Origin: a virus
Taxonomy: Duplodnaviria > Caudoviricetes
Virus record (IMG/VR): IMGVR_UViG_3300014508_000071
Location: 1-54,545 of that record
DNA length: 54,545 nt
Strand: one strand, 5' to 3'
Part shown: in pieces, positions 3,182-54,209 of the stretch
How the letters are laid out: every line of letters begins with the position of its first letter
How positions within the stretch are numbered: the first letter of the stretch is position 1
The notes under the pieces: generated by a model
The model's database searches: none
Told to the model about the DNA's origin: nothing
Seen by the model: only the letters and a program-made list of their open reading frames with translations
Made by a program: the position numbers and the translations under genes

Positions 3182-3217
3182 ACTTTATTAAACGCAAAAA
3201 GATGTGATTTGTTACGA

Positions 3218-3649
3218 CTACTCCTTCTTTTCAGACTTAGGAACAATCTTGTATTCAAAATCATCAGTCTTAGACATGATTTCACACTCTTCACTAACTA
3301 CGCTTGAATATGAGTTATATTCTTTAGTCACTGAGATCAACCAATCTCCTTGTTTAAATATTTCGTTATCCTTGAAATTCTGCAACAAAAATGTCATGCC
3401 ATCTTCTTCATCTGTAATATAAAAACAAATATCACTTCCGTAAGAGAAATGTCTTAATTCAGTACTTTTAATGTCGTAGAATGATGTGACTTCAGATGTT
3501 GGGACTAAATTCCCCAACAACAACCAACCAATAACTCCATGAATCAAAAGAGCAATAACTGATCCTGATATAAAGTCTTCTTCATCAAGTAAAAGACCGA
3601 TTATCAAAGCGATCAATATTATTACTGTTATTACAACAAGTACAATCAT
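3218..3649 (-). CDS. membrane protein, two N-terminal TM helices
   Basis: hydrophobic N-terminus; same layout as 3646..4020. Confidence 0.7.
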   Translation of the reverse strand: MIVLVVITVIILIALIIGLLLDEEDFISGSVIALLIHGVIGWLLLGNLVPTSEVTSFYDIKSTELRHFSYGSDICFYITDEEDGMTFLLQNFKDNEIFKQGDWLISVTKEYNSYSSVVSEECEIMSKTDDFEYKIVPKSEKKE

Positions 3650-50418: not shown

Positions 50419-50992
50419 AACCTAATATTTGTGCTTGGTTTGTTCTTGGTTTGTTATCCTCAATAAGCCTATACACCAATCCAAATGATAACTGCATGTG
50501 GTTCCAACTCACCCCGCTCATAGCTCTTAAATCCCAACCGTCACTCAATTGAACTCTAGCATCTAAGTAGAATAAATGAAGATTATATTCATCTACATAT
50601 CCATCACCACTAAGGTTGAAATTTCTATCCTGAAGAATATTAAGCTGCATTCCTTGATATCCAAACCCAATCTTTGAGTTTCTTGTCGTGAAAACAAAAA
50701 CTGTACAGTGAAAACCGTAACTATAATATCGACCAAGTAAATCAAATTGTGCAGTAGGAGCAACGGCTATTCTTCTGTAGAACTGAGCTTCAGTAGATAA
50801 ACCAATAGTACCGAGCAAGGATGAGGGAGTAAAATTTATAGAGGGAATGAATCCCAAAACTACATCATCATCTTGTTCTTGTTCCCATGTGGGAGTCCAC
50901 ATGAATTGTTCGCTAGTCTGAGCAGTCGCTGGTAGCGACAATACAAAAACAAGCAATAAGGTGTATAGTGTTTTCATATGGTAAAAGTACAA
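50393..50992 (-). CDS. secreted protein, possible small outer-membrane beta-barrel
   Basis: signal peptide MKTLYTLLLVFVLSLPATAQ; alternating beta-strand pattern; likely start at MKTL. Confidence 0.55.
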   Translation of the reverse strand: MYFYHMKTLYTLLLVFVLSLPATAQTSEQFMWTPTWEQEQDDDVVLGFIPSINFTPSSLLGTIGLSTEAQFYRRIAVAPTAQFDLLGRYYSYGFHCTVFVFTTRNSKIGFGYQGMQLNILQDRNFNLSGDGYVDEYNLHLFYLDARVQLSDGWDLRAMSGVSWNHMQLSFGLVYRLIEDNKPRTNQAQILGYEYEKSVR

Positions 50993-51028
50993 AAAAAAGA
51001 GAGAACTAACAAGCCCTCTCTCTTTTTT
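50991..51028 (-). terminator. intrinsic terminator after glnS
   Basis: minus strand GAGAGGGC-TTGTTA-GTTCTCTC plus T run. Confidence 0.75.
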
Positions 51029-51031
51029 ATT

Positions 51032-52573
51032 TTAACCTTTCCATTCTCTTAGAGGAACTACCTCATGAAAGACATTGCCTTCCTTTTTGAAGTAACCCTT
51101 CCTTAAAAACTGTACTGGATATTCTTTAACCAATCCGTAACGAGTCAAACTAGGTTCGACATAACCCTTAGAAGTAAATACCTCATCTCCAGAATACTTC
51201 TTTACTTCAATCTCATCAGCATGCTCACAACTGACCCAGTGAATGGTTCCTTTAATCTTCCGATCTAGTTCCATGCCAGATTTAGAGTTTGGATCAAAAG
51301 TACAGTATACAGTTTCAATATTGCCGTCTATATCCTTATCACAGGACACCGCCTTAATCACATAAGCGCCTTTTAAACGAACCTCTCCATCCAACTTGAG
51401 TCTATGATACTTTCGGTTACCTTCCTCTCTGAAATCCTCTCTTTCGATGTAAATTTCTCTTGAAAAAGGAACTTCTCTACAGATAGCATCATCTGCATTA
51501 GTTAGGTCTATCTTAAAAACCTCTTCCGCAAGAATATCGTAGTTTTCAATCACAACTTTAATTGGATCAAGAACTCCCATTAATCTTAAAGAAGAACTAT
51601 TTAACTCCTCTCTAATGCAAGCTTCAAGAAGTTTTGGGTCGGTTTCCGAAACAAACTTAGTAATTCCGATCTTATCACAAAAGTACTTAATTGAATCTGG
51701 AGTATAACCCCTTCTTCTCAATCCTTTCAATGTATAAAGTCTCGGATCATCCCACCCATCAAACTTACCTTCATCGATCATTGAGCTTATTAACCGCTTG
51801 CTTGTAATACCTTCCGAGATATTAAGACGAGCAAACTCTATTTGTTCTGGCTTTAAATTATCGTTAAGGCAATGCTTATCAATAAACCAATTATAAAGTG
51901 GTCTATGAACTTCAAACTCCAAGGTACAAAGTGAGTGAGAAATGCTTTCAAGGTAATCGCAAAAGGGGTGAGCAAAATCGTACATTGGATACGCTGACCA
52001 TTCACTGCCAGTTCTATAATGAGGCTTATTGACAACTCTGTAAATCACTGGATCACGCATAAGCATGTTATCGTGAGTCATGTCAATTTTAGCACGTAAA
52101 ACCATCGAACCTTCCTTTTCTTTACCCTCAATCATTGAATTAAACAAATCGAGACTTTCCTTTGGATCACGATCTCTATAAGGAGAGTTTGTTCCGATAG
52201 AAGTTGGAGTACCCTTCATTTCTGCAATCTCTTCTGAAGTAGATTCATCTACATAAGCCCAACCCATTTCAATAAACCTCTTTGCTATCAAATAAAGATC
52301 GACAAAATAATCTGAAGCATAAGTTATCTCAGAAGGTTTGAACCCAAGCCATCTAACATCATCCTCAATTGATTTGACGAAACTCTCATCCTCAGTTAAA
52401 GGGTTAGTATCATCAAACCTCAATACTACTGGCGCAGAGTGCTTTTCACCCAATCCGAAGTTCAAGCAAATTGCTTTAGCGTGTCCGATATGTAGGTAGC
52501 CGTTTGGCTCCGGAGGAAAACGAAACTTTAATTTCTTCCCTGATTTCGATACTATTTCTTCAATAAAGTTCAT
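51032..52573 (-). CDS. glnS: glutaminyl-tRNA synthetase
   Basis: RFPPEPNGYLHIGHAKAI, RFDDTNP, YPMYDFAH, SHSLCTLEF, QIEFARLN, TSKR, GWDDPRL, KGTIHWVS. Confidence 0.95.
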   Translation of the reverse strand: MNFIEEIVSKSGKKLKFRFPPEPNGYLHIGHAKAICLNFGLGEKHSAPVVLRFDDTNPLTEDESFVKSIEDDVRWLGFKPSEITYASDYFVDLYLIAKRFIEMGWAYVDESTSEEIAEMKGTPTSIGTNSPYRDRDPKESLDLFNSMIEGKEKEGSMVLRAKIDMTHDNMLMRDPVIYRVVNKPHYRTGSEWSAYPMYDFAHPFCDYLESISHSLCTLEFEVHRPLYNWFIDKHCLNDNLKPEQIEFARLNISEGITSKRLISSMIDEGKFDGWDDPRLYTLKGLRRRGYTPDSIKYFCDKIGITKFVSETDPKLLEACIREELNSSSLRLMGVLDPIKVVIENYDILAEEVFKIDLTNADDAICREVPFSREIYIEREDFREEGNRKYHRLKLDGEVRLKGAYVIKAVSCDKDIDGNIETVYCTFDPNSKSGMELDRKIKGTIHWVSCEHADEIEVKKYSGDEVFTSKGYVEPSLTRYGLVKEYPVQFLRKGYFKKEGNVFHEVVPLREWKG

Positions 52574-52575
52574 TA

Positions 52576-53016
52576 TTATTTTCTTTCTTCTATTTCTTCC
52601 AAGATTTCTTTAATCTCTTCTTTATCAGTGACCTTATCCCAATCAGAACTATCGAACTCAATCCCCGACTCTTCCCACCTGTGATACCAATCTCCATTCC
52701 ACTTAGAATAAAAATTTTCAATTCGGATGTCAATTCCAGAAGCAAATCTTTCTGATTCTGTTTCAAGTAATATGTTTTCTTCCAGATAATCTCTATCAAG
52801 AACTTTAATAAAAGTTCCGTTGTCAATTGCCTTTCTAATGTATCTCATAAAAAGCATAGCTTTGTCAACTGGCAACAAAGTAGCTGACCCTACATCTTCT
52901 AAATCAACAGGGAACTCATACTCATCTTTATTGTATGTAGCATTGTAATAAGCTGTCTTTGAATTAAAGTATGAAAGCGTAACGCTCTTGTCTTTTACTA
53001 TGTCTATAATCTTCAT
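52576..53016 (-). CDS. hypothetical protein in the tRNA-Gln/glnS unit
   Basis: 146-aa ORF ending 2 nt before glnS. Confidence 0.7.
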   Translation of the reverse strand: MKIIDIVKDKSVTLSYFNSKTAYYNATYNKDEYEFPVDLEDVGSATLLPVDKAMLFMRYIRKAIDNGTFIKVLDRDYLEENILLETESERFASGIDIRIENFYSKWNGDWYHRWEESGIEFDSSDWDKVTDKEEIKEILEEIEERK

Positions 53017-53052
53017 AATATTGTGTGTTTTGTGTTGTCCAATATAGTCATT

Positions 53053-53238
53053 TTAAGACTTATTTACAAATTGTTTTACGTACTGTGTTTTCAAATCATT
53101 TATTTTTCTCTGGTAATCTCCCACACTAATTTCGGCAGAATCAGAAGTCTTCTTTGTTAGAGCGCTTTTCATCTCATCTTCTAATGTCTTGATTCTCTCA
53201 AGCATTTTGTTTTTCTTCTTTAAAGTTTTCTTATCCAT
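53053..53238 (-). CDS. small basic helical protein (61 aa)
   Basis: start set at MDKKTL; the longer tracked ORF overlaps tRNA genes. Confidence 0.6.
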   Translation of the reverse strand: MDKKTLKKKNKMLERIKTLEDEMKSALTKKTSDSAEISVGDYQRKINDLKTQYVKQFVNKS

Positions 53239-53258
53239 CTTTTCTAAATTTAGTTTAG

Positions 53259-53341
53259 TTGCCCGTAATGGAATCGAACCAAGTTGTCCCGTAGGAAAGG
53301 GCTTCAAAGACCCTCGTGTACACCAGCACACCTCTGAGGCA
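53259..53341 (-). tRNA. atypical tRNA-Gln(TTG)-like gene with long variable arm, possibly degenerate
   Basis: anticodon arm AGGGT-CTTTGAA-GCCCT; extra arm TCC-TACG-GGA; TTCGATT loop; mismatches in inner acceptor and T stems. Confidence 0.6.
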
Positions 53342-53346
53342 ATATG

Positions 53347-53418
53347 TTTCCTGTGATGGTATCGATCCATCTCTAACTGCTTCAAAGGCAGTTGGACTAG
53401 CCAGTATCCGAACAGGAA
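53347..53418 (-). tRNA. tRNA-Gln(TTG)
   Basis: acceptor TTCCTGT/ACAGGAA; anticodon arm ACTGC-CTTTGAA-GCAGT; T arm GATGG-ATCGATA-CCATC; no encoded CCA. Confidence 0.88.
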
Positions 53419-53428
53419 ATATTACTTG

Positions 53429-53501
53429 TTACCCCACTTGGACTCGAACCAAGACAGACACAGCTTCAGAGGCTGTCGCACTACCATTATGCTATGGGGC
53501 A
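53429..53501 (-). tRNA. tRNA-Gln(CTG)
   Basis: acceptor TGCCCCA/TGGGGTA; anticodon arm ACAGC-CTCTGAA-GCTGT; T arm CTTGG-TTCGAGT-CCAAG; no encoded CCA. Confidence 0.92.
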
Positions 53502-53515
53502 ATATTTATAAACAC

Positions 53516-53560
53516 AAAAAGGGAAAGCCTGAACTTAGATCGTTCAGGCTTTCCCTTTTT
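53516..53560 (-). terminator. attenuator terminator hairpin
   Basis: GGGAAAGCCTGAAC-GATCTAA-GTTCAGGCTTTCCC (14-bp stem) plus TTTTT, between leader ORF and first tRNA. Confidence 0.9.
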
Positions 53561-53583
53561 GAAGTGTTATTTGGATTCTTACA

Positions 53584-53670
53584 TCAAGTTACTCTTACAG
53601 GCACAGCGAGACGATCTGATCTCTCAGATTGTTGCTGTTGCTGTTGGAATATGTCGTAAAAATAAGTCAT
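53584..53670 (-). CDS. Gln-rich attenuator leader peptide MTYFYDIFQQQQQQSERSDRLAVPVRVT
   Basis: ATG 53670, CAA CAG CAA CAG CAA CAA at 53646-53629, TGA 53586-53584. Confidence 0.85.
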   Translation of the reverse strand: MTYFYDIFQQQQQQSERSDRLAVPVRVT

Positions 53671-53713
53671 GTTCTAATAAATATGAGGTTTTTTGGTTCC
53701 CCGCTTAATTATA

Positions 53714-53738
53714 ACGCAAATATATAAAAAAAAGTTAC
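53714..53738 (-). promoter_or_regulatory. overlapping promoter motifs for the leader/tRNA-Gln/glnS unit
   Basis: TATATTTG (53724-53717) nested in GTAACT-N16-CGT. Confidence 0.65.
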
Positions 53739-53744
53739 AATAAA

Positions 53745-54209
53745 TCAAGTTTTTTTCTTTTTTTCTTTTTCACTTTTCTTCTCTTCTATGATTCTTCTAG
53801 TAGTTGCGGTGGTTTTCTCAACATGACACTTATGGCAAAGAGTTTGAAAATTATCTATTCCAGTACCTCCTCCACCATCTCTAACCTCTATAATATGATC
53901 AGCTTGCCAGTTCAATTTATCCTTTTCTCCGCATTTTCTACAAATTGCTTTCTCATTCTTATAAAGTTGATTTCTGATTTGATTCATATCACCCTTAACT
54001 GCGTAAAAATGATCTAAAGCTCTTTGGTTGCAATCTTTGCTAGCCCACCTTCTTTTTCTTGGAGGTAAATCAGCCTCACATCCGCAAGCACATTTTTTAT
54101 CATCTCTTAAAGGGAATAAATTTTGAACTTTTAAACCAGTTTGATAACGTTTATAGTGATCAATTAATACCTCTTTATTTTTATTCTTCTTGGTGTTGTA
54201 TCTACTCAT
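53745..54209 (-). CDS. HNH endonuclease
   Basis: CRKC, WQADHIIEV..GGG...NFQTLCHKCH..K. Confidence 0.85.
   Translation of the reverse strand: MSRYNTKKNKNKEVLIDHYKRYQTGLKVQNLFPLRDDKKCACGCEADLPPRKRRWASKDCNQRALDHFYAVKGDMNQIRNQLYKNEKAICRKCGEKDKLNWQADHIIEVRDGGGGTGIDNFQTLCHKCHVEKTTATTRRIIEEKKSEKEKKKKT

Follow-up and report, generated by a model that had tools for sequence, protein, structure and literature searches.

The window analyzed here is the whole of the IMG/VR virus contig IMGVR_UViG_3300014508_000071 (54545 bases); its estimated completeness is 18%, which makes it a fragment of a far larger phage genome, and its source is a huge phage of Bacteroidota-type hosts. On the minus strand, a promoter is followed by a short leader open reading frame (ORF) with a run of glutamine codons, an intrinsic terminator, tRNA-Gln genes, two small ORFs, the glutamine--tRNA ligase (GlnRS) gene glnS, and a final terminator (Table 1). 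The original prediction, made from the DNA alone, had described this unit as a glutamine-sensing leader-peptide attenuator that controls three tRNA-Gln genes and glnS. The leader ORF with its six consecutive CAA/CAG codons, the two small ORFs, the GlnRS gene, and the closing terminator were all found where they had been placed or close by. The terminator hairpin after the leader and its U tract are likewise real features of the sequence, with a stem of 20 bp instead of the proposed 14 bp. The tRNA-Gln genes with CTG and TTG anticodons were recognized by both ARAGORN and Rfam, whereas the third proposed gene is only tRNA-like.

Table 1. Features of the glnS unit and its upstream neighbor, in the order of minus-strand transcription
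Feature	Coordinates	Strand	Remarks
HNH endonuclease gene	53745-54209	-	directly upstream; stop codon overlaps the promoter TTG
Promoter, Bacteroidetes sigma-A type	53717..53748	-	TTG 53748..53746; -7 box TATATTTG 53724..53717
Leader ORF, 28 codons and stop	53584..53670	-	peptide MTYFYDIFQQQQQQSERSDRLAVPVRVT; A at -3 before ATG
Six consecutive Gln codons (codons 9-14)	53629..53646	-	CAA CAG CAA CAG CAA CAA; proposed regulatory codons
1:2 protector (anti-antiterminator) hairpin	53591..53650	-	minimum-energy folds
Strand 2, antiterminator partner	53598..53618	-	ORF nt 53-73, codons 18-25
Intrinsic terminator (strands 3 and 4)	53515..53561	-	20-bp stem, 7-nt loop, then U tract
tRNA-Gln(CUG)	53428..53501	-	ARAGORN; Rfam tRNA 59.1 bits
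tRNA-Gln(UUG)	53346..53418	-	ARAGORN; Rfam tRNA 48.3 bits
tRNA-like element, UUG anticodon loop, long extra arm	53261..53341	-	doubtful
Small ORF, 61 amino acids	53053..53238	-	weak match to phrog_28272
ORF, 146 amino acids	52576..53016	-	phrog_20427, E 1.6e-12
glnS, glutamine--tRNA ligase	51032..52573	-	Pfam PF00749, PF03950, PF20974; TIGR00440
Final terminator hairpin with U tract	50989..51030	-	fold -22.3 kcal/mol; ends the unit

Promoter motifs had been noted upstream of the leader, and a TTG element with a -7 box of the Bacteroidetes type is located there, as judged by the consensus TTTG/TANNTTTG that is given in extracts of PMC6847099 and PMC9723704; a sigma-70-type promoter scan also lists 53748..53719. 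The -7 box (TAHHTTTG) lies 54 nt upstream of the leader ATG and is the sole box of this kind that the consensus scan finds on the minus strand from 53800 to the start of glnS. In agreement with the original prediction, the scan from 53717 to glnS gave no second consensus promoter between the terminator and the tRNAs. The terminator stem contains 9 G-C pairs among its 20 bp, and 13 nt separate the end of the terminator from the first tRNA.

The minimum-energy fold of the leader RNA consists of the 1:2 hairpin followed by the terminator, with a z-score of -7.9 against 200 dinucleotide shuffles. The protector pairing that had been proposed at 53629-53614 is part of this fold; the 5' half of the hairpin (53650..53624) holds the Gln codons, and the 3' half (53619..53591) holds strand 2. 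Folded alone, the terminator and the 1:2 protector have energies of -33.4 kcal/mol and -20.7 kcal/mol, respectively. When the leader was paired with the 5' arm and loop of the terminator by RNAduplex, the best duplex (-17.8 kcal/mol) was formed by strand 2, and its core is the AGATCGT/ACGATCT match that had been put forward as the antiterminator. Shuffled sequences reached -10.5 +/- 2.5 in the same 2:3 pairing, which corresponds to p values of about 0.008 and 0.006 in two runs. When the terminator was cross-paired with the upstream regions of 25 leaders, the window's own region ranked 1st, and the other 24 had a mean of -10.0 +/- 2.6 and a best value of -14.9. The 1:2, 2:3, and 3:4 structures of a his-, trp-, or pheST-type attenuator, the layout to which the unit had been likened, are all present, and the predictions that this layout makes at the sequence level were borne out.

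Because equilibrium folding cannot decide between these structures, a nascent-transcript model was used, in which the RNA was folded up to the terminator loop with a ribosome footprint of 28 nt masked. The antiterminator was favored only when the A site was occupied by one of codons 8-15, and in this state 10 of the 20 nt of the terminator 5' arm were paired upstream. The 1:2 hairpin formed when the ribosome was absent or stood on codons 1-7; when it stood on codons 16-29, either strand 2 was masked or the 1:2 hairpin formed again. In 10 of 10 footprint settings, the permissive range fell within codons 7-16 and always included all six Gln codons, so that the antiterminator is favored in the nascent RNA only when the Gln-codon region is blocked, as the original prediction had anticipated.

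The closest phage GlnRS sequences (identity of 52-56%) are encoded by two uncultured-phage records of 634780 and 642428 bases, LR745206.1 and LR756502.1, which we used as relatives of the 630-640 kb class. In the main text of Al-Shayeb et al. (2020; PMC7162821), genomes larger than 634 kb are assigned to Bacteroidetes hosts and to the Mahaphage clade. The two records contain 61 and 50 tRNA matches, and in both of them three or four tRNA-Gln genes stand directly before glnS. A short ORF with a Gln run (peptides MTTTQQIQQQQINQTD and MTTSFQQQQQQQINRTD) and a terminator that ends 4-7 nt before the tRNA directly precede the first tRNA-Gln in each megaphage. Runs of this kind occur in 2 of the 697 ATG-started small ORFs of the window (8-60 amino acids, both strands), with at least five Gln residues in the leader only, and in 3 of the 2083 small ORFs in 160 kb of the megaphage records, two of the three being located directly before tRNA-Gln arrays. 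Chance is an unlikely source of the Gln run in the leader.

Further relatives were collected from IMG/VR. At the DNA level, a similarity search with 53240..53760 gave no match in the phage collection, nor did a GlnRS scan of viral contigs with a single protein as the query; a scan with a three-sequence GlnRS alignment (A1) yielded 76 loci. Labels of the form L0xx denote loci, in the megaphage records as well as in IMG/VR. The GlnRS of the related phage loci is 47-56% identical to that of the window. A tRNA-Gln gene lies just upstream of glnS in 12 of the 76 loci, 11 of which are evaluable (L014, which ends at the contig edge, was left out), and a Gln-run leader with a terminator precedes the first tRNA-Gln in 10 of these 11, for example with the peptides MTTFTQQYQQQQIDREIDW and MVNITINIQQQQQQQTLNKGSGIALS. 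Together with the two megaphages, the arrangement is thus found in 12 of 13 evaluable related loci, and L015 has the leader before glnS alone: a Gln-rich leader and terminator (350-960) are followed by an ORF of about 150 amino acids and glnS, with no tRNA between them. Gln runs in homologous loci had been named as a check in the original prediction. The arrangement in L015 suggests that a Gln attenuator can gate the synthetase alone. In three loci (L024, L043, and L049), tRNA-Gln genes occur in a different setting and lack a Gln leader; these loci were not counted, and small ORFs with Gln runs upstream of glnS in L035 and L042 were taken as chance occurrences, as they adjoin no tRNA.

Outside the Gln run, both the peptides and the terminator sequences differ among the Gln leaders. 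Alignment of the 13 Gln leaders with MAFFT (A3) misplaced the variable terminators, and base pairs were therefore not counted on it; alignment-free duplex tests and cross-pairing were used instead. Despite the differing terminators, the 2:3 duplex was better than that of shuffled sequences (p <= 0.05) in 11 of the 13 Gln leaders. In most of the short leaders, strand 2 spans the stop codon, and a terminating ribosome would therefore cover strand 2. In most loci, the tRNAs start 4-14 nt past the terminator. A promoter box of their own is found for the Gln leaders of the window, L011, and L074; for most Gln leaders of the relatives, no such box is present within 130 nt, and these leaders are located inside a tRNA operon, downstream of Pro/Asp tRNAs (as in L003 and L004). 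Two attenuators would therefore be arranged serially in one operon. A short U/A-rich stretch between strand 2 and the terminator is conserved in most Gln leaders (A3 columns ~88-100), and a similar A/U stretch occurs 5-15 nt before the terminators of other leader types (leaders in L007-L010). This stretch could be a pause or processing site.

Natural variation in the leader was compared over 53200-53800 with contigs of a ~90-95% similar strain from four metagenome runs. These contigs carry a 3-nt in-frame insertion, a seventh CAA directly after codon 14, which is the only indel in the leader ORF; the ORF contains 5 substitutions, 3 of which are synonymous. Outside the ORF, indels of 1, 2, and 4 nt are observed. 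In addition, of 25 leaders, 20 have an A at -3 of the start codon (background frequency of A, 0.45); according to an extract of PMC6847099, an A in this position favors initiation in Flavobacterium. The in-frame indel, the synonymous changes, and the A at -3 are signs, at the level of sequence, of a coding leader ORF. The similarity to the variant strain ends at 53746, which marks the HNH gene as an insertion/deletion difference between the strains. DNA of 51000-53800, or close variants of it, occurs in marine and ice metagenomes of several studies, and a search for RNA runs containing 51000..53800 returned none.

The same design precedes other tRNA arrays. The tRNAs of the two megaphages are sorted into groups by amino acid, and 14 leader/terminator units precede these groups; codon matching was scored for 13 of the 14, the second record's Asn/Leu-type leader being the one outside the scored set. 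The middles of the 13 peptides are rich in residues that are decoded by the leaders' own downstream tRNAs. Examples are MTTNSTHKNFSKSHKWFSNQSFGTESVLSLN before tRNAs for His/Phe/Trp/Lys, MKTINNTSKSSSRSSSMSEIRLYS before Arg(ACG)/Ser, MNTITNIASYESYYEEGNLVRRNNYVVM before Glu/Tyr, MKNLNNISIAVIGNGAGAIREWLSYGI before Ile(UAU)/Gly/Met, MTTMNLNMTMNLTLNVVNITLCNIRPTEGSDLFREIVM before Asn/Arg(UCU)/Leu/Val/Ile/Thr/Met, and MKTINVNIAPVNPQPQDQDPMRKANYVFMIS before Pro/Asp. The match extends to anticodons: CGN Arg codons stand before tRNA-Arg(ACG), AGA before tRNA-Arg(UCU), and ATA before tRNA-Ile(UAU). When each leader was scored by the share of its codons that the anticodons of a cluster can read, the true pairing of leaders and clusters was the single best of all 5040 and of all 720 permutations, and after column normalization the own cluster was the best for 7 of 7 and 6 of 6 leaders. 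The 2:3 pairing was better than that of shuffled sequences in 13 of the 14 megaphage leaders. In the footprint model of 25 leaders, the antiterminator was lost 1-3 codons past the central cognate cluster, and in the cross-pairing the own upstream region was among the top 3 of 25 for 17 leaders, where approximately 3 are expected by chance. In the IMG/VR loci, such a leader stands before 19 of the 21 tRNA groups that are preceded by a terminator, including Pro/Asp and Trp types.

A separate observation concerns the Asn/Leu-type leaders. In LR756502.1 (L009 31158-31554), a 67-amino-acid ORF lies between the terminator of this leader and the first tRNA-Asn, and in LR745206.1 a tRNA directly follows the terminator.

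Bacterial loci served as controls. The closest cellular GlnRS genes are those of Bacteroidota, mainly Flavobacteriaceae (identity of 47-55%), and of 80 bacterial glnS loci (mostly Bacteroidota), none carries a Gln leader and tRNA-Gln ahead of the synthetase gene. A host origin of the arrangement was rejected for the loci examined on this ground. At 28 bacterial tRNA group starts, a terminator-like hairpin was found within 100 nt upstream in 4 cases, and a leader with a cognate run was found in none of the 28.

Taken on its sequence, the unit in the window is probably a ribosome-mediated (leader-peptide) transcription attenuator specific for glutamine. In silico support for this reading is strong: it comes from the layout of the unit, from the alternative pairings, which are conserved and co-vary in the relatives, and from the match between leader codons and tRNAs; every sequence-level defining feature of leader-peptide attenuators that was tested is present, namely, the ORF, the cognate codons, the terminator, the antiterminator, and the geometry. 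Three points are inferred: translation of the leader, the coupling of this translation to transcription, and a response of read-through to the level of charged tRNA-Gln. In the proposed mechanism, transcription would start at the TATATTTG promoter, and a ribosome would translate the 28-codon leader while RNA polymerase advances. When charged tRNA-Gln is plentiful, the ribosome would clear the six Gln codons and cover or pass strand 2; the 1:2 hairpin would then form again, the 20-bp 3:4 terminator would fold, and transcription would stop 13 nt before the tRNAs. When charged tRNA-Gln is scarce, the ribosome would stall on codons 9-14 and block strand 1, so that strand 2 would be free to pair with the terminator loop and the upper part of its 5' arm before synthesis of the 3' arm, and the polymerase would read through into tRNA-Gln(CUG), tRNA-Gln(UUG), the two small ORFs, and glnS. 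Since tRNA-Gln and GlnRS would relieve the stall, the unit would constitute a negative feedback loop on the phage's Gln-decoding supply. The suggestion in the original prediction that a host tRNA-cleaving defence could trigger the switch is speculation.

Several results weigh against this interpretation. In folds of the full-length RNA, the terminator formed in every case, including those with the Gln codons masked by a ribosome, so that antitermination must be kinetic, as it is in the classical systems. The antiterminator is weaker than the terminator (-17.8 versus -33.4 kcal/mol) and extends over about half of that hairpin's 5' arm. The footprint model was of our own choosing, as were its thresholds. 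Many relatives form the antiterminator by default, with no ribosome present, which indicates that the 1:2 protector is not a conserved part of the design. The 2:3 pairing is weakly supported in L016 (p of 0.17, rank 14 of 25) and L074 (p of 0.08, rank 11 of 25), and W01_F and W01_G rank only 7 and 9 of 25 in the cross-pairing. The Fisher-combined p values for the 2:3 pairing, 2e-11 and 3e-15, overstate the evidence because homologous leaders are not independent. Finally, L020 has tRNA-Gln before glnS without a leader.

The same locus, L020, fits an account in which the hairpin is a constitutive leaky terminator or a processing or stabilizing hairpin that sets the tRNA level, while the small ORF senses nothing. 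The strength of the terminator, which wins every full-length fold, and its terminator-like appearance on both strands also agree with such a role. This account is nevertheless unlikely, as it leaves unexplained why Gln runs recur in 12 of the 13 evaluable related loci, why the true codon-tRNA pairing comes first among 5040 and among 720 permutations, why strand 2 co-varies with different terminators, and why the antiterminator fold coincides with the Gln codons. The promoter, leader, and terminator could also be mainly a gene for a small RNA (sRNA) or a micropeptide that acts in trans, with control of the tRNAs secondary or absent. The window's own promoter and strong terminator would yield a discrete structured RNA of ~200 nt, and an extract of PMC7968998 describes trans roles for an sRNA and a peptide that are derived from the trp attenuator of Sinorhizobium. 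We consider this quite improbable, because the peptide is not conserved outside the Gln run, most Gln leaders of the relatives lie promoterless inside a tRNA operon, and the tRNAs in most loci start so shortly after the terminator; a role in trans would moreover be compatible with attenuation.

A T-box-like switch that works without translation has to be weighed as well, in which uncharged tRNA-Gln would bind the CAA/CAG run directly by base pairing and stabilize the antiterminator. The run is complementary to the anticodons of the tRNAs encoded downstream, and T-box elements control aminoacyl-tRNA synthetase genes in other phyla. An Rfam scan of 52900..53900 (E <= 10) gave no match to a T-box or another known riboswitch, however, and both were rejected as assignments for the unit. 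The runs always lie in a frame that starts with ATG, ends with a stop codon, and has A at -3; the natural indel keeps the reading frame; and the leaders with scattered codons for several amino acids fit a ribosome that reads a frame, not a single specifier. A T-box-like switch is very improbable on these grounds, and the ribosome-mediated glutamine attenuator remains the favored reading.

Judged from the leaders and arrays compared, the unit in the window is one of a family of putative codon-specific attenuators that gate the tRNA arrays of huge phages. It appears fairly likely that, in the huge phages of Bacteroidota, these units form a codon-resolved supply-and-demand circuit, in which each tRNA array, and in the window the synthetase as well, would be gated by its own cognate-codon leader. 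The leader types of this circuit would be Gln; Pro/Asp; Glu/Tyr; His/Phe/Trp/Lys; Arg/Ser; Ile/Gly; and Asn/Leu/Thr/Met/Val/Ile/Arg.

Among known systems, pheST of Escherichia coli (pheM leader) is the closest in working; there, a leader ORF with cognate codons and alternative hairpins control an aminoacyl-tRNA synthetase operon. Both systems have a cognate-codon leader, a switch between terminator and antiterminator, and a synthetase product that feeds back on the stall. Unlike pheST, the unit in the window has Gln instead of Phe codons, places tRNA genes first, is borne by a phage, and has a promoter and start context of the Bacteroidetes type, and the two share no sequence similarity. The trp, his, leu, thr, and ilv attenuators have the same 1:2, 2:3, and 3:4 logic with the regulatory codons in strand 1, but they regulate amino-acid synthesis, whereas the putative target here is the supply of tRNA and synthetase. 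T-box riboswitches serve the same purpose, in that they sense tRNA charging to switch a terminator before aminoacyl-tRNA synthetase genes; they bind the tRNA directly without translation, whereas the signal in the window lies in a putatively translated frame. The Rfam family Thr_leader (RF00506) matches only the terminator hairpin, with 37.2 bits on the plus strand and 28 bits on the minus strand against a threshold of 55, and membership of the Rfam leader families was therefore rejected. Leader-peptide attenuation is indicated before amino-acid operons of Flavobacterium psychrophilum in the extract of PMC9723704, and the host phylum thus uses the mechanism.

Full-text literature searches found no Gln-codon attenuator and no leader-peptide attenuator before phage tRNA genes, in line with the original prediction, which had known of neither; they also found no regulation of the tRNA arrays of huge phages and no leader-peptide attenuator for Gln, Pro, Asp, Glu, Tyr, Lys, Asn, Arg, Ser, or Gly. 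The huge phages of the Mahaphage clade, which carry tRNA arrays and include the best phage relatives of the window's GlnRS, are treated in PMC7162821; its main text, as distinct from the supplements, does not contain 'attenuat', 'leader', or 'terminator' and does not describe regulation of the arrays. The proposed reading bears on the reasons for which phages carry tRNA genes and on the way in which these genes are deployed. If it is correct, a tRNA set would be switched on only when ribosomes stall for it during infection, and the phages would gauge decoding demand codon by codon through the host ribosomes and top up shortfalls only. Leader-peptide attenuation would then be described for the first time for tRNA genes, for a virus, and for most of the amino acids of the leader types named above; the reading would extend attenuation to tRNA genes, to viruses, and to Gln, Pro, Asp, Glu, Tyr, Lys, Asn, Arg, Ser, and Gly. 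For Bacteroidota, the leaders would also offer a small natural set of orthogonal sensors with codon specificity.

The third tRNA-like element was not called by ARAGORN, and its best Rfam match is tRNA-Sec with 28.8 bits, below the threshold of 47 bits. It aligns with the 82-85-nt long-arm tRNA-Gln(UUG) genes of relatives (alignment A2), with mismatches in its acceptor and T stems, and variant strains have a change at 53313 in its anticodon stem. This element may be a decaying copy. Its assignment as tRNA-Arg(cct) by a relaxed ARAGORN search was rejected because the fit is poor and in a different register. In L007, L008, and L009 (LR745206.1, LR756502.1), ARAGORN lists many tRNAs for Lys, Asn, Arg, Glu, Thr, and Gln that are 80-90 nt long, and long extra arms are unusual for tRNAs of these amino acids. 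Within the Pro/Asp array of L003, ARAGORN lists a tRNA with a four-base anticodon (gtag, 3211-3284), which could be a miscall or a frameshift-type tRNA.

The assignment of glnS is clear: the protein scores 542.9 bits with the equivalog TIGR00440 against a cut-off of 425.8, and the models for glutamyl-tRNA synthetase stay under their cut-offs. The 61-amino-acid ORF has no Pfam match. The 146-amino-acid ORF shows weak similarity to small ORFs that adjoin tRNA-Arg(CCU) in the two megaphages (L009 34130-34426 and L008 5026-5256; E of 4e-5 and 0.002), and from these similarities it looks like a member of a small protein family that travels with tRNA genes.

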